Source of the DNA: Opitutales bacterium
GTDB lineage: Bacteria > Verrucomicrobiota > Verrucomicrobiia > Opitutales > Intestinicryptomonadaceae
DNA: 32,000 nt
Direction of reading: 5' to 3'
Assembly: GCA_044433115.1 (NCBI GenBank)
Contig: JAWXTY010000017.1
Span: 6,382 to 38,381 of the forward strand
Both the position numbers and the translations under genes were made by a program. Shown here piece by piece: positions 3,911 to 31,146 of this stretch. Each line of letters opens with the position of its first letter. Within the stretch, counting starts at the first letter, position 1. The notes below the pieces were generated by a model that saw only the letters and a list, made by a program, of their open reading frames with translations, made no database searches and was not told where the DNA came from.

Positions 3911-4020
3911 GAAAATATTTAAATTATTGCAAAAAAATGTTGAAAAATTGTCATATCTCAAAATAATACTAGCTTAATTATATTATTGGCGACTTTAAAA
4001 AATTAGTTTCTAAAAAGATA

Positions 4021-4239
4021 AGAAAGAACACACTTGCTCTTTTTTGCCTATTTTATTCTAATTTCTTCTGTTTTCTCCTTAGATAACGCTGTTATCCTCC
4101 TTGAAAACATAAAAAATTATCTTTAAAATAATCTAAAAAATAGCTAAGTGCTAATTTTTTAAAATCACCTTATTAAATATGTAGCTACAAAAAGAAAAGC
4201 TACACTACAACTTGGATTATTTAACCTAGGAATAAAAAA
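4021..4239 (+). repeat. Intergenic promoter/leader cassette, copy A (upstream of yebC)
   Basis: Collinear with the reverse complement of 29508-29680 and with 25361-25585. Exact 24-nt (4031-4054) and 35-nt (4125-4159) identities are shared with copy B. Confidence 0.8.
4101..4129 (+). promoter_or_regulatory. Candidate sigma70-type promoter inside cassette A (TTGAAA-17 nt-TAAAAT) pointing at yebC
   Basis: TTGAAA is at 4101-4106, the spacer is 17 nt, and TAAAAT is at 4124-4129. Equivalent hexamers sit at the same cassette positions in copy B (29570-29598, minus) and copy C (25436-25464, plus). Confidence 0.4.
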
Positions 4240-4983
4240 ATGTCAGGACATAGTAAATGGGCAACAACTAAACGCCACAAGGCAGCAATAGATTCAAAAA
4301 GAGGCAAAATATTTAGCGTTTTGAGTAAGGATATTACTCTTTCAGCTAGAGATGGCGGCGGCGACTTGAACTTTAACCCACGTTTAAGAACTCTCGTAGC
4401 AAAGGCTAAGGCAAGCAATATGCCAGCTGATAATATTGATAGAGCTATCAAAAAGGGTACAGGTGAAATCCCTGGCGTGGTTTACGAACAACTTCTGTAT
4501 GAAGGTTATTCTGTTGGTGGCGTTGGTATTATCGTAGAAGTTACTACTGAAAATAAAAATCGCTCTGCTGGTGAAGTTAGATCTGCTTTCACTAAATGTG
4601 GTGGCTCTCTAGCTACTCAAGGTGCTTTGCAATTCAATTTCAATAAGCAAGGTCAATTCATTATCTCTGCTGAAGATACTACTGAAGACCAACTAATGGA
4701 AATCACTTTAGAAGCTAATGCTGAAGATATTAAAAACAATGGCGACCACTTTGAAGTTCTTTGTGGCATTGCTGATTATGACAATATGTCTAAGGTTTTA
4801 GAAGACGCTGGTATTAAATGTGCCGACTCTAACTTAGCTTGGATACCAAGTACTCTAGTTGAAGTTACTGACAAAGACGTAGCTAAAAAGGTTATGAAAC
4901 TAGTAGACCTTCTTGAGTCTTTAGACGACGTTCAAGAAGTATATTCTAACTACGATATAGACGACGCTCTTTTAGAAGGTTAA
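4240..4983 (+). CDS. yebC: YebC/PmpR family DNA-binding transcriptional regulator
   Basis: 247 aa. The N-terminus [25 protein letters not shown] and the block [17 protein letters not shown] are the family signature. Confidence 0.9.
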
Positions 4984-4985
4984 TT

Positions 4986-6377
4986 ATGGGAAAAACTTTA
5001 TTTGAAAAAGTTTGGCAAAAGCACGCTGTTAAAGAATTAGCAGATGGCTCTACCCAACTATTTATAGGAACTCACCTCCTACACGAGGTTACTAGCCCTC
5101 AAGCATTTGGTATGCTTCGCTCTTTAGGCTTAAAGGTGCGTTATCCAAATCGCTCTTTTGCAACAGTAGACCACATTATCCCTACAACTGACACAGCTGA
5201 ACCTTATTCAGATAAGTTCGCATACGAAATGTTAGAGCATATCAGAAAGAATTGTGCCGATAATGGAATTAAGTTCTTTGACGTAAATGGTGGGCAAGGC
5301 GTAATCCACATCGTTATGCCAGAACAAGGTATCATTCACCCTGGTATGACTGTTGCTTGTGGAGATAGCCACACTGCAACTCACGGAGCTTTTGGGGCTG
5401 TTGCCTTTGGTATAGGCACAAGCCAAGTTCGTAATGTTCTTGCTACTCAAACTTTGTCTTTCAAAAAACTTAAGGTTAGACGTATTGAAGTTAATGGCAA
5501 GCTCAGCGATGGCGTTTATGCAAAGGACGTAGCTCTATATATTATTAGAAAGCTCGGCGTAAATGGTGGTATAGGCTATGCTTACGAATTTGCAGGCGAG
5601 GTATTCGACGATATGGATATGGAAGGCAGAATGACTGTTTGTAATATGGCTATCGAAGGTGGGGCAAGAGTTGGATACATAAACCCAGACCAAAAAACTT
5701 TCGACTACCTAAAGGGCAGACCTTATGCTCCGAAATCTGAAGATTGGGACAAAAACGTTCAAGAGTGGAAGGCAATCGCCTCTGACGCTGACGCAGTTTA
5801 TGACGACCTAATTAAGTACGACGCAAAGGATATACTCCCTACTCTAACTTGGGGCGTAAACCCTTCTCAAGCAATTTTCATAAACGAAAATATCCCTAAT
5901 CCTGAAGATATTTCTGACCCAGTAGAAAAGAAAGAAGCTCTCGAAGCCCTCTCTTATATGAAGTTAGAAGCAGGAAGCCCTATAGAAAAAACTCCTATCA
6001 ATGTTGCTTTCATAGGCTCTTGCACTAATGGCAGAATTAGCGACTTCGAAGAAGCTGCAAAATACCTTAAAGGCAAAAAAGTTGCACCTAATGTTAGAGC
6101 ATTAGCTGTCCCTGGCTCTCAAATCGTAAAAGAAATTGCAGAGGCAAAAGGCTTAGACAAGATATTTATCGAAGCTGGCTTCGAATGGAGAAACGCAGGT
6201 TGCTCTATGTGCTTGGCAATGAATGCAGACAAACTTAAAGGCGACGAACTTTGTGCTTCTAGCTCAAACAGAAACTTTAAAGGCAGACAAGGTAGCCCAA
6301 CTGGCAGAACTGTACTTATGAGCCCTAGAATGGTAGCGTCTTCTGCTATAGCCGGCTTCATCACTTATGGGGCGTAA
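4986..6377 (+). CDS. leuC: 3-isopropylmalate dehydratase large subunit
   Basis: 463 aa. [36 protein letters not shown] and [11 protein letters not shown] are LeuC/aconitase-family Fe-S ligand blocks. The start lies 2 nt after the yebC stop. Confidence 0.9.
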
Positions 6378-6545
6378 TATTGCCCTTGATGCTCCGTTTT
6401 GAGGATTTTTGAGACTCTCACGTACAATAAGTACGCTTCGACCCTCAAAAATCCTCAAATACTCGCCTGAAGGGCAATCTTAGGCCCCATCAAAAATTTT
6501 GCTTTCGCAAATTTTTGGTCGGAAAAACTGATTGTGTTTTGGGCA
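6369..6545. repeat. Nested-hairpin intergenic element, copy 1 (long imperfect hairpin 6369-6488, small A/T-flanked hairpin 6491-6517, then a tail)
   Basis: The basal arms GGGGCGTAATATTGCCCTT / AAGGGCAATCTTAGGCCCC, middle arms GAGGATTTTTGAG / CTCAAAAATCCTC and apical CGTAC-AATAA-GTACG form a nested hairpin. The leuC stop codon (6375-6377) lies inside the basal stem. Confidence 0.85.
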
Positions 6546-6700
6546 GTTTACTTTAGGGATTTTTTGGACTCTCACGTACAATAAGTACGCTTCGACCCTC
6601 AAAAATTCTCAAATACTCGCCTGAAGGGCAATCTTAGGCCCCATCAAAAATTTTGCTATAGGCAAATTTTTGCTTGGGAAAGCTGATTGCGTTTTGGGTG
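6546..6700. repeat. Nested-hairpin intergenic element, copy 2 (left basal arm missing or degenerate)
   Basis: The core ACTCTCACGTACAATAAGTACGCTTCGACCCTCAAAAAT recurs 154 nt after copy 1 (6414 vs 6568). The right arm GAAGGGCAATCTTAGGCCCC and the small hairpin CAAAAATTTTGC...GCAAATTTTTG are retained. Confidence 0.8.
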
Positions 6701-6732
6701 ATTAAAGAAATTTAAAAATAAAAGGATAAAAT

Positions 6733-6945
6733 ATGCCAACTTATGATTATCACTGTTCTAGCTGTAATGAGACTATGGAAATTTTCCATTCTATGACTCA
6801 GCCCGACGAAACTATATGCCCTAAGTGCAAAAAACCAACGCTTAAAAAAGCAGTTGGCAATGGCTCTGGCGTTATATTTCACGGAAGTGGCTACTACTGC
6901 ACAGATTATAAGAAAAAATCTGCAGGCACAAAAGCTAAAAAATAA
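6733..6945 (+). CDS. FmdB/CxxC_CxxC_SSSS family zinc-ribbon protein
   Basis: 70 aa. MPTYDYHCSSCNETMEIF...ETICPKCKKPTLKK carries the two CxxC pairs and the N-terminal MP.YdY.C..C signature of the family. Confidence 0.8.
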   Translation: MPTYDYHCSSCNETMEIFHSMTQPDETICPKCKKPTLKKAVGNGSGVIFHGSGYYCTDYKKKSAGTKAKK

Positions 6946-7093
6946 GGGGCTTAAAATTGCCCTTGATGCTCCGTTTCGGGATTTTTTTGAACTCTCACGT
7001 ACAATAAGTACGCTTCGACCCCAAAAAAATCCTAAATACTCGCCTGAAGGGCAATTTTAAGCCCCTTCAAAAATTTGCTAAGGCAAATTTTTT
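6946..7093. repeat. Nested-hairpin intergenic element, copy 3 (perfect 19-bp basal stem)
   Basis: GGGGCTTAAAATTGCCCTT (6946-6964) is the exact reverse complement of AAGGGCAATTTTAAGCCCC (7047-7065). It is followed by CAAAAATTTGC-TAAG-GCAAATTTTTT (7068-7093). It starts on the nucleotide after the zinc-ribbon gene stop. Confidence 0.85.
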
Positions 7094-7449
7094 AGTAGTC
7101 TTTAAGAATTATTGTCTACTTAAGGCTTTAAAAAGCTCCACCCTTTGCACCCTCAAGTGCAAAGCCTAAAATTTTAAATAAAAAAATGTAATTAACTTGA
7201 AAAATATCCTTATTTTTCAATGGATGGGGATTTTGTTGATTTATCTTTAATGCTTGCATTAATTTAAATCAACAAAATGAAGAGTGGGCAACCGACTAGC
7301 ACCCCTAAGAAAACACTCTAATATACAAACGCCAACAAAAACTATGGTATCAAGTGCCTCACTTGTTTCAGGTTTTAAGGGCTGAAACCAAGCCCTTAAT
7401 GGGGTTTGGGGCAAAGCCCCAATATCTCTAAATCTTTCTTGATCTTTTA

Positions 7450-7983
7450 TTATTTTTTGCGTCTATTTCGGTTTTGTAGGATTTTGCGTAGTTTGGGTCT
7501 ATCCTCTTCGCTGACTATGTAGCCGCAGCAGTTTAGAGACCCGCATTTGCATTTGTGGTCTAGGAAGTGTTCTAGGGCGTAGCCGTAGTTAAAGAGAAGT
7601 TCTTCGCCTGCTTTTATATCCTTTGTGGCATAGAAAAATATTTGATTACCCTCTTGTACTGACTCGCAATTTGTCTGGCAGGAGTGATTTATATACTTTG
7701 CGTCGTTATAATCGAATTTGCCATCTATAAAAGTTTCTTCGTCGAGTTCGAATATATAAACAGAGCCATCTTTGGTGATTTCGGCTTGTGCTTCGTATTC
7801 CAAGCCACGCTTGTTTGCTTCGTCCTTGCCGAGTGTTTCGCCAAGATATTCCATAATTTGCGTGCCTTTTTTTATGGGGCATTTTGCAAATACGCCATTT
7901 CCGTGAATTTCCGACTTCTTTATTATATAGAGCTTTTCGTCCATTTTATTTAGGGAATTTTGAGCTTCTAACTTCATCTGCAT
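7450..7983 (-). CDS. SET-domain protein lysine methyltransferase with a post-SET Cys cluster
   Basis: IHGNGVFA (N-SET GxG), INHSCQTNC (NHSCxPN), EELLFNYGY (ELxFDY) and CKCGSLNCCG (post-SET CxCxxxxC). The longest ORF overlaps panB by 38 nt. The internal Met at 7944 (MDEKLYIIKK, 164 aa) starts 1 nt after the panB stop and is the more likely start. Confidence 0.85.
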   Translation of the reverse strand: MQMKLEAQNSLNKMDEKLYIIKKSEIHGNGVFAKCPIKKGTQIMEYLGETLGKDEANKRGLEYEAQAEITKDGSVYIFELDEETFIDGKFDYNDAKYINHSCQTNCESVQEGNQIFFYATKDIKAGEELLFNYGYALEHFLDHKCKCGSLNCCGYIVSEEDRPKLRKILQNRNRRKK

Positions 7984-25360: not shown

Positions 25361-25585
25361 AGCTATAATTGCTCTTTTTTATTTATTTTTGCTTGAATTT
25401 CCTTGTTTTTACGTTAAATAATTGCATTATTCGCCTTGAAAAACAAGAAAATTACGCTAAAAATAAACTAAAAAATAACTAATTGCCAATTTTTAAAAGC
25501 TCCCAATAAACTATACATTTCATAAAAATAGAAAAGCAAAAAATACACTTGCCCTTTAGTTTAGGATTTAATAGCGTTATTTTCT
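25361..25585 (+). repeat. Intergenic promoter/leader cassette, copy C (upstream of the histidine kinase)
   Basis: Collinear with copies A and B but more diverged. It has TTGCTCTTTTTT, the palindrome AATAATTGCATTATT (25417-25431), TTGAAA (25436-25441), the A-rich hexamer around 25458-25464, CTAAAAAATAACTAATTGCCAATTTTTAAAAGCTCCC (25468-25504) and AAAAAATACACTTGCC (25538-25553). Confidence 0.7.
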
Positions 25586-26721: not shown

Positions 26722-27693
26722 TTAGCTTTTGCGTCTTGTTAATGCTTTTTCAAGAGCCAAGCCTATTTTATCCAATTTCTTTTGAATTTTGGGTGTAACA
26801 TCTATTTTTATTAAGCTTTCTTTTGGCATTTTCTTTAAATTAAAAAGTTTTTTGGCGTTTTGGGAGAAGATGGCTTTGTGGAATTTTGTGGGGATATTTC
26901 TTTGGGCTTCTTCTTTGAGTTGATTGAAATCTGCTTTGAGGGATATTTTGGGGTAGAGAGCTAAAGAGTAATCTGTGCCAAAGCATAGATTTTTGAGTTG
27001 ATTGAAATCGAGATTTGCCCAGTCGCTTTCTTTATATAATAGGGGAAAGGCAGCACAATCGAGATATATGTTTTCAGCAAAATCGCTCGCTCTAAATGCT
27101 CTACCTCCTGCAAGGTGTGAGAAGATGAACTTTTGTTTTGGGAACTTTTTGGCAAGGGCAAATAGTGCCTCATTATCTGTAATTATCTTGCCCTTATAGT
27201 CCTTTCCAAGCTCGTCGCTAAGGTGTATACATATAGGAAGCTCCTCAGCTTGGCAGATTTTGACTATCTCGCAAAAGCCATCGCTTAGAAAGTCAAAGCC
27301 TTGCACTTTATCGCATAATTCGCCAACTGCTACAAAGCCTAAGCCCCTTGCTTGCTTTAGAAATGCTATGCTTTCTTCTACAAATTTAGGGCATATAGTT
27401 GCCATAGGCAAAATTCTATCAGGGTAAGACTTTGCGAAGTCGAGAGCAGTTTTGTTGAAATATTCGCAGGCTTCGACGCTTTGATAATACGCCCCGTTTA
27501 TCACAGCCTTGTCTATATTTGCCCTATCCATTTGAGCAATAAATTCTTCTTTGCTAACTAAGTCTTGCAGGCTCTTTTTCTTTTGTGGAAAGAGCAAATC
27601 AAGCCAATAAGTCTCGCCAAAATCCCTTAGAACTTGCTCTAAATTATCTCTTGGAAAGTAATGCGTGTGTATGTCTATAATCTCGCTAGGCAT
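26722..27693 (-). CDS. Amidohydrolase-2 family metal-dependent hydrolase (TIM barrel)
   Basis: 323 aa. The N-terminal IIDIHTHYFP metal-binding HxH motif and a later HL..G/D pattern are typical of PF04909-type amidohydrolases. Confidence 0.65.
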   Translation of the reverse strand: MPSEIIDIHTHYFPRDNLEQVLRDFGETYWLDLLFPQKKKSLQDLVSKEEFIAQMDRANIDKAVINGAYYQSVEACEYFNKTALDFAKSYPDRILPMATICPKFVEESIAFLKQARGLGFVAVGELCDKVQGFDFLSDGFCEIVKICQAEELPICIHLSDELGKDYKGKIITDNEALFALAKKFPKQKFIFSHLAGGRAFRASDFAENIYLDCAAFPLLYKESDWANLDFNQLKNLCFGTDYSLALYPKISLKADFNQLKEEAQRNIPTKFHKAIFSQNAKKLFNLKKMPKESLIKIDVTPKIQKKLDKIGLALEKALTRRKS

Positions 27694-28589
27694 ATATAAA
27701 AAAGCACAAGGCTTAGAGCTATTCTATACCAAGCAAAAGGAGCTAAGCCCCACTTGGACAAGAAGTATACGAAAAATTTAACGCATATAAGAGCAAATAT
27801 GAAAGATACTAAAATTCCCCAAATTGCACTTTGCAAAGAAATTGCATCTAGCATAGCCTCATAGTCAGTTAAAATCTTAAAGGAACTCGCTGCCCCAAGG
27901 GTAATTAGCCCAAGCAAAAAGCTAAATTGAGCTGCCCCCTTAGGGTTTAGCCCTATGACATAGCCCCCTAAAATAGTCATCATAGACCTACTTGCCCCAG
28001 GGATAAGGGCAAAGCATTGCAAAAAGCCCACAATCAAGCTTTGCTTTATGCTAAGTTTAGAAAGGCTTATATCTGCCTTTTGCTTTGCCTCTTTTTCGTA
28101 TTTAGCCCTTACAAATAGCATAAGCAAGCCTCCGACAAACAAGCTGATTGCCACAGGCAAAACGCCAAAGAAGAAGCTTTCTATGAGCTTATATAGGCTT
28201 AGCCCAATGACTGCCGCAGGCAAAAAGGCTACAAATATATTTCTAGCTAAATAAAGCCCATCTTTGTCTTTGCCAAGCACTCCTAAAATTATGCTCTTTA
28301 GGCTTTTCCAGTATAGGAAAATTACAGCAAAAATCGCCCCTATCTGTATTACAACTGCATAAATATCTGCAGAAGCCTTTAGCTTTTCGTCATCATTTAG
28401 CCCCAAAGCCTCATTTGCCAATATTAAATGCCCAGTCGAGGACACTGGCAAATACTCAGTAAGCCCCTCAACTATACCCAAAACAGTTGCGTCGTAAGTA
28501 TCTATTTGAAGTTTTGGCTCGCTCTTTTCGCCAGCAAAAGCACTTAGGCTTAGGCAACAAAAGATAAGTATCGCTAGGATTTTTTTCAT
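27675..28589 (-). CDS. uppP: Undecaprenyl-diphosphate phosphatase (BacA/UppP) with an N-terminal signal-like extension
   Basis: 304 aa. GIVEGLTEYLPVSSTGHLIL and PGASRSMMTILGG are the two UppP signature blocks. About 30 extra N-terminal residues look like a signal peptide (MKKILAILIFCCLSLSAFA). Confidence 0.9.
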   Translation of the reverse strand: MKKILAILIFCCLSLSAFAGEKSEPKLQIDTYDATVLGIVEGLTEYLPVSSTGHLILANEALGLNDDEKLKASADIYAVVIQIGAIFAVIFLYWKSLKSIILGVLGKDKDGLYLARNIFVAFLPAAVIGLSLYKLIESFFFGVLPVAISLFVGGLLMLFVRAKYEKEAKQKADISLSKLSIKQSLIVGFLQCFALIPGASRSMMTILGGYVIGLNPKGAAQFSFLLGLITLGAASSFKILTDYEAMLDAISLQSAIWGILVSFIFALICVKFFVYFLSKWGLAPFAWYRIALSLVLFYICLARL

Positions 28590-28600
28590 AACACACTTGC

Positions 28601-29197
28601 CTAATAAATTTTTCTTGCGTCTAAGGCACTTTTTATAGTTGAAGAATCTGCAAATAGCAATGCACTACCACTAGGCAAGCCAAAGCCTATTCTTGTTAAA
28701 TTCACTTGAGAGCCATCTACTATGCACTCTTGTATATAGTGGCAAGTCGCTTCTGCCTCTATATCATTAGACAAAGCAAGGATTAGCTCGCTAATTTCCC
28801 CAGAGTCGACTAGAGCCTTGAGCTTTTCCATTTTTAAATTTTCAGGGCTAATACGTTTCATAGGCGAAAGTTTGCCCCCTAATACAAAATATCTGCCCTT
28901 GAACGCTCCAGATTTTTCTATAGACATCAAGTCCAAGACGCTTTCTACCACGCATATAGAGTGTTGCTCTCTCGAAGAGTCTGCACAGATATTGCAAAGT
29001 TCTCCACGCTTTGCCATTGCTCCACAAAATTCGCACTCGCCAATAGCCACTTGAGCCTTAGCGAGGCAATCTTGCAAGTCTTTAGCCAAACTTGGCTCTT
29101 CTAAAACCAAGTTTAGGGCTATACGCTCAGCTGCCTTGGGTCCAAGAGAGGGTAGCTTGCGTAGAATTTTCTTTAGATTGTCAAATTCCTGACTCAC
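28601..29197 (-). CDS. recR: Recombination protein RecR
   Basis: 198 aa with the LPSLGPKAAERIA helix-hairpin-helix, a C4 zinc finger (CEFCG...CNIC) and a Toprim domain. Confidence 0.95.
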   Translation of the reverse strand: MSQEFDNLKKILRKLPSLGPKAAERIALNLVLEEPSLAKDLQDCLAKAQVAIGECEFCGAMAKRGELCNICADSSREQHSICVVESVLDLMSIEKSGAFKGRYFVLGGKLSPMKRISPENLKMEKLKALVDSGEISELILALSNDIEAEATCHYIQECIVDGSQVNLTRIGFGLPSGSALLFADSSTIKSALDARKIY

Positions 29198-29198
29198 C

Positions 29199-29507
29199 TT
29201 AGAATAGTCCAGGTAGGCTAAAACCTCCTGTTACTGTAGACATTTTTTCGTCGCTTAGAGCCTTTGCCTTTACTGCCGCCTCATTGATAGCTGACAATAT
29301 AGTAGACTCTACAGTTGCAGCGTCTTCCTTTAAAAATTCAGGATCTAACTTCAAGCTTTTCAAAGCTCCGTGTCCATTTACATTAACTACAACAGCTCCG
29401 CCGCCACTAGAAACTTCAACAATTTCTGTTTCTAAGCCCGATTGAACTTCTTCCATAACTTTTTGCATCTTTTGTGCTTGCTTTAATAGTTTTCCTACTC
29501 CTGCCAT
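29199..29507 (-). CDS. ybaB: YbaB/EbfC family nucleoid-associated protein
   Basis: 102 aa. It shows LLKQAQKMQKVMEEVQ, a GGGAVVV...NG block and a C-terminal GGFSLPGLF. It lies directly upstream of recR, as is usual. Confidence 0.9.
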   Translation of the reverse strand: MAGVGKLLKQAQKMQKVMEEVQSGLETEIVEVSSGGGAVVVNVNGHGALKSLKLDPEFLKEDAATVESTILSAINEAAVKAKALSDEKMSTVTGGFSLPGLF

Positions 29508-29680
29508 TTTATTTCTTTCTTTTATTTATGGTGGTTTCTAAAAATTAGCACTTAGCTATTTTTTAGATTATTTTGAGGTTGATTTTTTATGTTTTTAAGG
29601 AGGATAATGAATTATCTAACGCAAAAACAGAGAAAATCAAAGCAAAATAGGCAAAAAAGAGCAAGTGTATTTTTCTTATT
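29508..29680 (-). repeat. Intergenic promoter/leader cassette, copy B (upstream of ybaB-recR-uppP)
   Basis: The reverse complement aligns with 4021-4169, with exact identities of 24 nt (29644-29667) and 35 nt (29540-29574). The minus-strand TTAAAA (29593-29598) -17 nt- CAAAAT (29570-29575) points at ybaB. Confidence 0.8.
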
Positions 29681-29691
29681 CTATTTTAAAA

Positions 29692-31146
29692 CTAATTATT
29701 AGAAGCCACCTTATGTTTAATTATTAGAAGCGTCATATCATCTGCATAAGAATATGTTGCTCCACAAAATTTTTGTACGTCTAGTAATATATCAGTATTT
29801 ATGTCTATAGCACTCTTTTGAGCGAAACGCTTTATAGACTTTTCTAGGCGATTAGACCCAAACTCTTCCTTATTTGCATTTAAGGACTCAGTTATACCAT
29901 CTGTATACATAACCAAAACAGAGTCTTTGCCAAAAGGGAAAATAGTGTCTTCTATTACCATATCAAATATTTCAGGGTCTACCATTCCCACTGCCATTCC
30001 TGCTGAATTTATCTTCATAGATGGGCTTTCGCTCGTGTATTTAGCACAAAGGAGGGCTTGTTCGTGTCCTGCTCTTGCCATAGTAATTTCGCCTTTATTT
30101 ATGTCTAAAATTGCATAAATCATAGTTATGAACATATCCTCACGCAAGATTGGGGCAATCTCTCTATTTAGAGCCTTTAGTGCTTCTGCTGGAGTTTCGT
30201 AATTCTTGGCAATACTCTTGAGTTTTGTTTGAACTATAGCCATCACCATTGCTGCAGATACTCCCTTGCCAGATACGTCTGCAATAACTATACCCAATTT
30301 TGACTTTGGCAATTCTATAAAGTCGTAAAAGTCGCCCCCTATAGATTGCTGAGGCACATAACGCACTGCAAACTCATAATCTTCAAGTACTGGCATTTGC
30401 TGAGGCAATAGATATTTTTGCACGCCCCCTGCAAGCTTTAAATCGAATGTAAGCTTGTTACGCTCCACAAATTGGTCGACTGCATTTGCGTTAGAAATTG
30501 CAATTCCTGCTTGCTCTGCAAGAGTTTTAAGTATGCTAACTTCCATCTCGCCAAATAAATTTTCGCCCATAGGATTTAGTACTACCATAACAGCAATGAC
30601 TTCGCCATCTACTCTTATAGGCATATATATTGCACTAGTGATATTTAAAGAAGGGTCGTCGCTCTTAATTATGCGAGGGTCTTTAGTTGCGTCGCTAATT
30701 AATATAGATTTACCTTCTGAGCCAACTTCGCCAACTAGTCCTTCGTTTGCGTCTAAAATCTCGCCTTCGTAGATTTTTTCCATACGCTCAGCCTTAGTAC
30801 TTTCGTCGCCTTTTAGCTTTGAGCTTCTCTTTTGAGGGGGAAACAAGCCTTGAGTTCCAGCTGACATCCAAGTTCCACTTGCTTGTTTTAGATATATACA
30901 AGAGCTTTGTGCGTTTACGCTAGTTGCTGACAAATGTATAGCCTTTTTACAAATTTCTAGCAGGCTCACTCCCCCTTGAAATTCTAGGGCAAATCGACGC
31001 ATAACGTTGACTATGAGTACTTTGTCCTCACGCAATTCGTCATTTTCTCTAAGCAAGTCTTGCCACTGACGCCTTACAATAAAGTAGTGAGGCACAATAA
31101 ACAGCACAAAAAATACAGATAGAAATATGCAAATAAAAGTTATCAT
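29692..31146 (-). CDS. Membrane-anchored GAF-domain PP2C (SpoIIE/RsbU-type) serine phosphatase
   Basis: 484 aa with an N-terminal TM (ITFICIFLSVFFVLFIV) and a central GAF-like region. PP2C/SpoIIE motifs are SIGGDFYDF, ADVSGKGVSAAM and MYTDGITES. Confidence 0.85.
   Translation of the reverse strand: MITFICIFLSVFFVLFIVPHYFIVRRQWQDLLRENDELREDKVLIVNVMRRFALEFQGGVSLLEICKKAIHLSATSVNAQSSCIYLKQASGTWMSAGTQGLFPPQKRSSKLKGDESTKAERMEKIYEGEILDANEGLVGEVGSEGKSILISDATKDPRIIKSDDPSLNITSAIYMPIRVDGEVIAVMVVLNPMGENLFGEMEVSILKTLAEQAGIAISNANAVDQFVERNKLTFDLKLAGGVQKYLLPQQMPVLEDYEFAVRYVPQQSIGGDFYDFIELPKSKLGIVIADVSGKGVSAAMVMAIVQTKLKSIAKNYETPAEALKALNREIAPILREDMFITMIYAILDINKGEITMARAGHEQALLCAKYTSESPSMKINSAGMAVGMVDPEIFDMVIEDTIFPFGKDSVLVMYTDGITESLNANKEEFGSNRLEKSIKRFAQKSAIDINTDILLDVQKFCGATYSYADDMTLLIIKHKVASNN

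Follow-up and report, generated by a model that had tools for sequence, protein, structure and literature searches.

Why do the leuC gene and a small zinc-ribbon gene in a human-gut bacterium of the order Opitutales (Verrucomicrobiota) end in copies of the same long hairpin, and what is this hairpin? The locus lies in a stretch of 32,000 nt from contig JAWXTY010000017.1 (assembly GCA_044433115.1, positions 6,382 to 38,381), referred to below as the window, and coordinates given without a locus name are those of the window. An earlier note on this DNA had described three copies of the hairpin and had likened them to ERIC (enterobacterial repetitive intergenic consensus), Correia or MITE-type (miniature inverted-repeat transposable element) repeats, or else to a structured 3' untranslated region (UTR). 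Our analysis bears this comparison out through an ERIC-like architecture, 8-bp target-site duplications in a sister subfamily and the absence of the element at orthologous leuC loci. We think it likely that the window repeats represent an ERIC-type, non-autonomous, MITE-like hairpin element, co-transcribed in the 3' UTRs of its neighbours and carrying an apex that would serve a host or mobile-element factor. This reading is based on the repetition of the element, its fold, its absence in relatives, its fusion to gene ends, its membership in a superfamily and the transposition footprints of the sister subfamily; mobility in the window genome, transcription, an effect on mRNA and a role of the apex are what we infer from the sequences.

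Three copies of a nested hairpin behind leuC

The 31-nt core ACTCTCACGTACAATAAGTACGCTTCGACCC occurs exactly three times in the window (at 6414, 6568 and 6991), just as the earlier note had it, with no fourth site in the window even when up to 3 mismatches are allowed; all of 100 dinucleotide shuffles of the window gave zero matches, and 0 are expected by chance. A repeat search of the window returned a direct-repeat family of 134 nt at 6366, 6520 and 6943, and inverted arms of 46–47 nt at 6367-6413/6444-6490 and 6944-6989/7022-7067. Copies 1 and 3 fold into three tiers, namely the apical CGUAC-AAUAA-GUACG stem-loop, an A/U-rich middle stem of 13–16 bp and a basal stem of 17–21 bp, with minimum free energies of -66.5 kcal/mol (z -11.6) and -65.8 kcal/mol (z -10.3), respectively; the three-tier fold proposed earlier thus stands for these two copies. 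The basal stem of copy 3 is a perfect 21 bp, and its base overlaps the final two bases of the zinc-ribbon stop codon. Copy 2, whose right arm is near-identical to that of copy 1, indeed has no left basal arm and folds far less well (z -4.4). A covariance model of the apex and its flanking stem (R1) matches copy 1 on the minus strand, which is the better-folding orientation, and a scan of the window with R1, filters off, found these three copies alone. Table 1 lists the features of the region.

Table 1. Features of the leuC and zinc-ribbon region, in window coordinates
Feature	Position	Strand	Basis	Remark
leuC (3-isopropylmalate dehydratase large subunit)	4986..6377	+	Open reading frame (ORF)	Last two codons (GA) and TAA stop inside copy 1
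Copy 1, complete 124-nt nested hairpin	6367..6490	motif strand +	Inverted repeat, fold	R1 match 6401-6456 (-), 64.8 bits
Invariant 31-nt apex core of copy 1, C-TCA-CGTAC-AATAA-GTACG-CTTC-G	6414..6444	+		
Small A/T-flanked palindrome 1, CAAAAATTTTGC-TTTC-GCAAATTTTTG	6491..6517		Repeat search	
Unit 1 tail, GTCGGAAAAACTGATTGTGTTTTGGGCA	6518..6545	+	Direct-repeat family D3	Recurs after copy 2
Copy 2, 5'-truncated	6546..6644		Repeats, fold	R1 match 6555-6610 (-), 50.3 bits
Small A/T-flanked palindrome 2	6645..6672		Repeat search	
Unit 2 tail	6673..6698	+	Direct-repeat family D3	Directly 5' of zinc-ribbon gene
Zinc-ribbon gene, 70 aa	6733..6945	+	Pfam PF09723 Zn_ribbon_8 (FmdB-like), E 1e-13	Between elements
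Copy 3, complete 124-nt nested hairpin	6944..7067		Inverted repeat, fold	R1 match 6978-7033 (-), 57.7 bits
Small A/T-flanked palindrome 3	7068..7093		Repeat search	

All three copies are followed by a small A/T-flanked palindrome, CAAAAATTT(T)GC-loop-GCAAATTTTT (family D2), and copies 1 and 2 form a 154-nt tandem unit composed of the hairpin, the small hairpin and a tail of ~27 nt. Copy 1 and copy 3, with the zinc-ribbon gene between them, share 86% identity; the apex is unchanged in all three copies and the arms differ. The earlier note had regarded the differences between copies as partly compensatory, which holds for one basal pair (T-A versus A-T) and for the middle stem, where the pairing is kept by matched lengthening of a T-run and an A-run, while two further basal pairs are altered on both sides and yet are mismatched in copy 1 (G.G and T.C). 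The ends read (A)TGGGGC...GCCCCA(T) and AAGGGGC...GCCCCTT, with TA flanking on the left and TC on the right. In size and lack of coding capacity the element conforms to a MITE, as it is 124 nt long with inverted arms out to both ends, and the ORFs called within it are short and overlap flanking genes or hairpin arms.

The element was not recognised as a named family in the earlier note, and we can only agree: across the window Rfam 15 gives 0 matches at gathering thresholds, and at E<=10 nothing except sub-threshold miRNA-like noise. BLAST searches of plasmids with the window element and with a Desulfobacterota-type copy (see below) returned no match, and a look-up of the exact zinc-ribbon protein sequence yielded no record of it. 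The window contains a second, unrelated intergenic repeat family of ~200 nt (72–89% identity) at 3975-4172 (+), 25364-25498 (+) and 29527-29723 (inverted). Each of its copies lies just 5' of a gene (a yebC-like gene, a histidine kinase and ybaB, respectively) in constant relative orientation, and the family may represent a further repeat element or a regulatory region that these genes share.

An apical stem-loop shared across phyla

On the strand on which the motif was found in the window (the P strand) the apex has the form C-[UCA]-CGUAC-N5-GUACG-[CUUC]-G, which corresponds to C-[GAAG]-CGUAC-N5-GUACG-[UGA]-G on the complementary strand, here called F. A scan with the pattern TCACGTAC-N5-GTACGCTTCGA over one genome per species matched ten loci, in seven of which the motif tops a nested hairpin of 100–150 nt with arms unrelated to those in the window. 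These seven belong to Cocleimonas (two loci), another gammaproteobacterium, Pseudodesulfovibrio, Desulfurivibrionaceae, a metagenome-assembled genome (MAG) of Rickettsiaceae and 'Ca. Rickettsia vulgarisii'. An eighth locus, in an Actinomycetota MAG, carries the motif together with both of the boxes described below and, on sequence alone, is a probable member. A metagenome scan with CTCACGTAC-N5-GTACGCTTCG matched at least 120 contigs, and nearly all of the matches listed have the same arrangement, with nested hairpins of 100–180 nt overall under the apex. Far from being confined to this single locus, a concern raised in the earlier note, the apex is thus found in several phyla. Judged by these members, the superfamily is defined by a near-invariant apical stem-loop and not by its ends, the arms being lineage-specific yet complementary; the apex is present in Gamma- and Alphaproteobacteria, Desulfobacterota and Verrucomicrobiota, and probably also in Actinomycetota. 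A scan of viral contigs gave a single match inside coding-like sequence, which we judged to be due to chance, and a search of the literature for the motif as a text string returned primer coincidences alone.

Among 28 diverse members, pairing over the 16 positions to either side of the apex reaches 82% of the cells, as compared with 57% in shuffles and 25–47% when the partner is slid, in a test that is not fully independent, since the sequences had been preselected for at least 10 complementary positions out of 16. The stem flanking the apex shows 193 double-sided changes in this set. R1 also found copies without the exact motif, with compensatory apex helices (CATAC/GTATG, TGTAC/GTACA and CGTAT/ATACG), a 5' loop of GAAG, GGAG, GTAG, GCAG or GATG, and a hairpin loop of 4–6 nt. 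Because the pairing of the stem exceeds that of the controls and the apex helix varies in a compensated way, these comparisons indicate that the structure, and not merely the sequence, is maintained. Two boxes are found ~20 nt from the apex in about one third of the non-redundant members: on the F strand a 5' box (C)AAGGCG occurs in 18 of 61 members (4 in the control arm) and a 3' box (C)AACGC in 16 of 61 (3 in the control arm). The corresponding sequences in the window copies are TCAGGCGAG and GAAACGGAGC.

The earlier note had proposed a search with a covariance model, and R1 recovers, besides the window copies, clusters of one to three matches at other loci of related Opitutales genomes (L073, L075 and L108). 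Variants of the apex occur at these loci, e.g. GG-TCA-CGTAC-GTTTA-GTACG-CTCC. In L073 (~1560-1650), L075 and L108 there are also neighbouring hairpins with a different but analogous apex (e.g. CAA-GTGC-TTAA-GCAC-ACTC), hence sister apex types exist. Some members adjoin tRNA genes (L023 at ~650-800, L037/L091 and L038); in L023 the element lies between the 3' end of one tRNA (...GGTTCGAATCC...CACCA) and the tRNA that comes after it. In several copies one arm contains an additional insertion of ~20–55 nt (L055, L101 and L122 in the right arm; also L041, L045, L052 and L111), for instance TAGCTGAGCTGGGCAGCTTGTCTGCCCTAGCGAAACTTATACCC or GGTAAGCGAAGACTCCGAG, mirrored on the opposite arm in L052, which suggests nested small elements or an extension of the arm.

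The leuC locus in related genomes

The window LeuC ends with ...ITYGA*, where the GA and the stop codon are supplied by the element; the TAA (6375-6377) falls within the left basal arm of this copy, copy 1, where the earlier note had placed it. The zinc-ribbon ORF ends at 6945 and the GGGGC of copy 3 begins at 6946, so that the claim that this copy starts right after the stop codon is also correct. Homologues of LeuC with 84% identity come from named Opitutales, on long human-gut metagenome contigs including those from Hadza samples; in these relatives LeuC ends with ...ITY*, gyrB is the next gene and there is no element. In a relative with 81% identity LeuC ends with ...CRKI*, an ordinary terminator rich in G+C and then other genes come next, and again there is no element (the window itself is low in G+C, ~38%). 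R2, a broader apex-plus-stem model run with filters off, found no element in the leuC loci of these relatives. This is the pattern of presence and absence looked for in a mobile element, and because the relatives without the element have different LeuC ends, the sequences indicate that the element is lineage-specific at leuC and has replaced the native stop codon.

The earlier note had also suggested a search for empty sites. The relatives have no element after leuC, but since the genes downstream of leuC are in a different order too, they do not offer clean empty sites. The cluster lies where gene order is broken: in the window leuC is followed by the elements with the zinc-ribbon gene and then by SET-panB, whereas in the relatives leuC is followed by gyrB, and SET by an amidohydrolase. 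Copy 3 lies between convergent genes, the zinc-ribbon gene and the SET-panB operon. In relatives SET-panB abuts a block of amidohydrolase, BacA and RecR, which in the window is found 20 kb away, at 26722-31146 (compare L015-L020 and L152). All of 15 short-read contigs that encode an identical LeuC end inside the 31-nt core; these ends are due to the repeat breaking the assembly, for which three local copies are a sufficient cause.

Transposition footprints in a sister subfamily

The largest subfamily is Desulfobacterota-like, with many copies per contig and the ends GTAACTATCCAGC...GCTGGATAGTTAC; its layout comprises a long left arm, folded back upon itself around the apex, then a spacer of 32 nt and the right end. 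Among 14 distinct copies with both ends present, the flanking 8-mers match at 7 or more of 8 positions in nine, seven of them perfectly, compared with 0/14 (mean 2.5/8) in a shifted control. Because of these clean 8-bp target-site duplications, the members of this subfamily are, on the sequence evidence, true miniature transposons (MITEs). Ends of the type GTAAGCG or GTAAC with an 8-bp duplication are, we assume from the ISfinder conventions, a signature of the IS66 family, which fits this subfamily. A search of the loci examined for an autonomous partner, as pairs of subfamily ends 0.6–4.5 kb apart, found neighbouring MITE copies alone.

Members of the superfamily also occur in tandem arrays. 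L034 (7285-7920) contains six R1 matches with an exact spacing of 116 nt, and L053 (25-378) three matches with a spacing of 149 nt, compared with 154 nt in the window; both resemble array growth rather than dispersed transposition. The array in L034 consists of two alternating unit types, with the 5'-loop variants GAAG, GGAG, GTAG and GCAG.

Proposed explanation and alternatives

The history that we envisage for the window repeats begins with the entry of the element into the 3' end of leuC, where it would have replaced the native stop codon, and into the space after the zinc-ribbon gene, where the gene order differs from that of related species. A partial tandem duplication may have followed the insertion, copy 2 being the presumed partial duplicate. 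The element would most likely be co-transcribed with leuC and the zinc-ribbon gene, giving 3' UTRs with a hairpin of -60 to -66 kcal/mol followed by a weak A/U-rich hairpin. In analogy to ERIC in Yersinia, whose effect on the 3' end or stability of mRNA has reportedly been shown by experiment, these hairpins could set or protect the 3' end of the mRNA or change its stability, the large one by blocking 3' exonucleases or by creating processing sites. For a widespread factor, either of the host or of a mobile element, the conserved apex would most likely be a module of recognition or of folding nucleation.

Several results weigh against this ERIC-type mobile element, the first group of which concerns mobility in the window itself. 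A search for target-site duplications around the window copies, as the earlier note had proposed, found nothing convincing; all three copies have the same right flank, so that the right end is ambiguous and no duplication can be defined. A cognate transposase had likewise been suggested as a target; a Pfam scan of 23 window ORFs turned up no transposase, integrase or RAYT (REP-associated tyrosine transposase, REP standing for repetitive extragenic palindromic), and apart from the zinc-ribbon gene and leuC the ORFs scanned are housekeeping genes, among them those for aconitase, YebC, PanB, a SET-domain protein, MreBC, PBP2, RecR and BacA. There are three copies only, all within 730 bp and none elsewhere in the 32 kb, and local duplication alone could explain the cluster. 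According to such an explanation one hairpin-plus-terminator unit at a rearrangement junction was copied by slippage or recombination, and is not, or is no longer, mobile and has no function. The 154-nt tandem unit with its near-identical right halves, the small hairpin common to all copies, the lack of visible independent target-site duplications and the position of the cluster at a gene-order break all agree with it. It is harder to reconcile with a copy 3 that shares just 86% identity with copy 1 and lies on the far side of a gene, with an apex that is intact in all copies while the arms differ, and with the related clusters found elsewhere in other Opitutales genomes; moreover, it accounts for the multiplication of the copies and not for what the unit is. 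We consider purely local duplication quite unlikely.

The second group concerns transcription. In a comparison of folds the F strand is the more stable one in 103 of 121 instances, and after swapping the apex for a neutral loop it remains better in 46 of 61 non-redundant representatives, with a mean advantage of 4.25 kcal/mol (Wilcoxon p 3e-5) and a modest excess of G.U pairs (358 versus 286). The P strand is co-directional with the upstream gene in 53 cases versus 25, a count that rests on crude ORF calls, and the window elements follow the same pattern. As F folds better and P is mostly co-directional, the better-folding strand is mostly antisense, i.e. the template, which a simple model of a hairpin in mRNA does not predict. 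Selection against the very stable F hairpin inside mRNAs is a possibility, and would fit the orientation-dependent destabilisation described for ERIC. Deamination of C to T on the sense strand was considered as a cause of the asymmetry and rejected, as it predicts the opposite sign. A sigma-70-like match (TTAGCA, 16-nt spacer, TAAAAT; 9/12) lies at 7081-7054 on the minus strand, where the loop of small hairpin 3 and the copy 3 base together make it up, and is directed into the element on its better-folding strand; the region contains 3 such matches versus 2.6 expected by chance, and the site is weaker in copy 1.

The strand asymmetry is significant and would not be expected from the evolution of pure double-stranded DNA. 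Together with the invariance of the apex across phyla, the covariation of the stems and the orientation bias, it argues for a structured cis-acting or small RNA, or a single-stranded DNA, kept for a cellular function and not mobile, in which the apex binds a protein or RNA and the arms present it; the GAA/GA internal loop of the F strand could conceivably form tandem G.A pairs, a common platform for protein binding. A family of this kind would not be expected to have a sister subfamily with 8-bp target-site duplications, or to occur beside unrelated genes, in coding genes (the Rickettsia M20 peptidase, see below), between tRNA genes and in tandem arrays; the window element is also absent at orthologous loci in relatives, and no Rfam family matches it. 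We regard such an exclusively cellular role as unlikely, though the two readings are compatible, since a mobile element can carry a functional RNA module.

Termination of transcription was the function suggested in the earlier note for the small A/T-flanked hairpin after each copy. The hairpin itself is present in all three places, but a terminator consensus scan of 6200-7500 found 0 sites, and the small hairpins have 2–3 G-C pairs and dG of -8.5 to -14 kcal/mol. This speaks against the proposed 3' UTR, and equally against a view of the repeats as bidirectional intrinsic terminators, which would serve leuC, the zinc-ribbon gene and the SET-panB operon convergent to it, and to which the large hairpin would be accessory. 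Terminators would explain why copies lie directly after stop codons, why copy 3 is placed between convergent genes and why the small palindromes are flanked by runs of A and T; they leave unexplained the cross-phylum apex and the target-site duplications of the sister subfamily, and a relative has an ordinary G+C-rich terminator after leuC. We find this explanation very improbable.

Finally, R1 and R2 do not detect ERIC (best score 8.9 bits, E 2.6), and the E-values that ERIC obtains with a third model, described below, are marginal at genome scale. With these points taken into account, the ERIC-type mobile element remains the reading that we prefer.

A broader proposal, which we offer tentatively and with more doubt than confidence, is that the apex and the boxes constitute an ancient functional module common to hundreds of families of hairpin repeats from four or more phyla, including ERIC, Correia and RPE-like elements (RPE, Rickettsia palindromic element), as a portable cargo or recognition signal. 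The apex might then act as RNA or single-stranded DNA on the better-folding strand, and a widespread factor might use it for propagation, processing or host tolerance. Since the same apex is found on elements with differing ends and duplication lengths (8 bp versus TA), it is unlikely to be a transposase-binding site; its pattern of conservation is the reverse of that expected for a MITE defined by its transposase. If the proposal is true, it unites elements that have been held to be unrelated and taxon-specific for 35 years, and provides a defined 24-nt handle for the factor.

Comparison with known repeat families

Strain typing makes wide use of ERIC and Correia repeats, both known since about 1990; to our knowledge, neither the enzyme that mobilises them (no transposase is known for either) nor the reason for their conserved centre has been established. 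Reviews and a 2024 census of MITEs treat ERIC, Correia and the like as separate families, and MITEs as taxon-specific and defined by their ends. The same 19 specified bases, in contrast, cap otherwise unrelated hairpins in Verrucomicrobiota, Desulfobacterota, Alpha- and Gammaproteobacteria, and the main value of the finding beyond the window is that the apex connects the element with a very large and apparently undescribed superfamily, which spans phyla and probably includes ERIC.

ERIC (also IRU or RU-1) is 127 bp long, compared with 124 nt for the window element, and both are imperfect palindromes over their whole length, with three tiers. They have in common the layout of the central hairpin, [stem]-GA(A)G-5 bp-4/5-nt loop-5 bp-TGA-[stem'], which on the complementary strand takes the form [stem]-GA(A)G-C(G/T)TAC-loop-GTA(C/A)G-TGA-[stem'] in ERIC copies of E. 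coli, Salmonella, Pectobacterium and Klebsiella, and also the boxes (C)AAGGCG and (C)AACGC(A/C)G, ~20–25 nt on either side of the apex. The better-folding strand of an E. coli ERIC (L141:361-487) reads ...GTTGCAGGAAGGCGAC...CCCCAG-GAG-CTTAC-ATAA-GTAAG-TGA-CTGGGG...GCAAACGCAGCACATGCAAC..., and matches the F strand of the superfamily in its architecture, its boxes and their order, as well as the TGA and GA(A)G loops. It is the same strand that folds better in ERIC and in the superfamily (-56.5 versus -40 kcal/mol for the E. coli ERIC). Both elements occupy intergenic space at the 3' ends of genes, which is transcribed in ERIC and, by analogy, may be so in the window, and both can replace a stop codon: in an Erwinia amidase gene an ERIC at the 3' end is reported to do so likewise (PMC2759123). 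Transcribed together with its neighbours, ERIC changes the stability of mRNA through RNase E in an orientation-dependent manner (PMC2229807, PMC10969869).

The differences concern mainly the ends. ERIC duplicates TA on insertion (PMC2229807, PMC3184786). Its termini (TATAC...GTATA) carry TA duplications, whereas the window element has GGGGC...GCCCC without a TA duplication; the usual ERIC apex is CTTAC-ATAA-GTAAG as opposed to CGTAC-N5-GTACG; and ERIC is known only from Enterobacterales and Vibrionaceae, while the host of the window element belongs to the Opitutales. With neither TA termini nor a TA duplication, the window element is not an ERIC in the strict sense. The third covariance model, R3, covers box, stem, apex, stem and box, and was built from 18 sequences including window copy 3 and no ERIC. 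In 50 kb of E. coli it ranked the sole ERIC element first (17.7 bits, E 0.068), full-length and in register; this element makes up ~0.1% of the search space. Full-length, in-register alignments were obtained for five of nine ERIC copies from Pectobacterium, Salmonella, E. coli and Klebsiella, with 23.4, 22.8, 17.7, 15.8 and 11.9 bits and E-values of 2e-4 to 0.07 in this small database. In one Klebsiella copy, whose arms are typical of ERIC, the apex is CGTAC-AGCGC-GTACG. Taken together, ERIC is probably, though not provably, a distant relative of the apex superfamily. If so, the function of ERIC-type repeats could be studied in E. coli through a defined motif, protein families that co-occur with the apex could point to a partner, a large class of intergenic hairpins in metagenomes could be annotated, and a common cause of assembly breaks would become recognisable.

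The case of Correia elements (NEMIS or CREE of Neisseria) is suggestive only. Like the window element they are non-coding hairpins, Correia being a MITE that is co-transcribed with its neighbours, and in their short form of 105 bp the order ACAAGGCGG...CGAAGC...GTAC-AAATA-GTAC...GGCAACGCCG is the one found in the superfamily. The two best R3 matches in 40 kb of N. gonorrhoeae with five Correia copies are two short 105-bp elements, in register on AAGGCGG, GTAC-N5-GTAC and CAACGCCG; their scores are weak (15.1 and 14.4 bits, E 0.2–0.3), and R3 does not match the full-length 155-bp copies in this 40 kb. Correia has a 26-bp terminal inverted repeat (TATAGTGGATTAA...), a TA duplication, an IHF (integration host factor) site and promoters, none of which is seen in the window element, and its apex is without the UCA/CUUC internal loop of the superfamily. 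The Correia consensus that we used matched N. gonorrhoeae at 99.4%. Two PLSDB entries with at least 40 Correia matches each (NZ_CP119140.1 and NZ_CP119142.1; N. gonorrhoeae, 2.17 Mb) are filed as plasmids and are evidently chromosomes.

Among the RPE-like cases, two loci of Rickettsia(ceae) carry the exact apex on a nested hairpin (L009:5389-5532 and L006:6813-6956), and the copy in L009 lies inside an intact ORF for a 438-aa M20 peptidase (4892-6208). RPEs are known to insert within coding ORFs, and it is by this feature that the L009 copy is likened to them; as in RPEs, the window element supplies coding sequence (the last two leuC codons and the stop), while the window copies are otherwise intergenic. 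The IS66-family-like MITEs (GTAAGCG/GTAAC, 8-bp duplication) have the same apex, and the window element differs from them in its ends and in having no detectable duplication.

Other known systems were considered and rejected. At their base the attC sites of integron gene cassettes carry R'' (RYYYAAC) and R' (GTTRRRY) boxes that are conserved, whereas their apex is variable, and an integrase is encoded nearby; the invariant apex and variable base found here are the reverse pattern, and the window has no integrase. REP sequences are palindromes of 20–40 nt tagged with GTAG or CGTC, arranged in doublets and accompanied by a RAYT gene; the window element, a 124-nt nested hairpin, has no such tags, and the window contains no gene for a RAYT or Y1 transposase, which speaks against REP/REPIN. 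Ends of IS200/IS605 were dismissed for lack of tags or subterminal hairpins. The K-turn, sarcin-ricin/loop E, hammerhead, hairpin ribozyme, domain V of group II introns and the T-arm of tRNA were set aside as well, since the loops deviate from the respective consensus and Rfam is silent.

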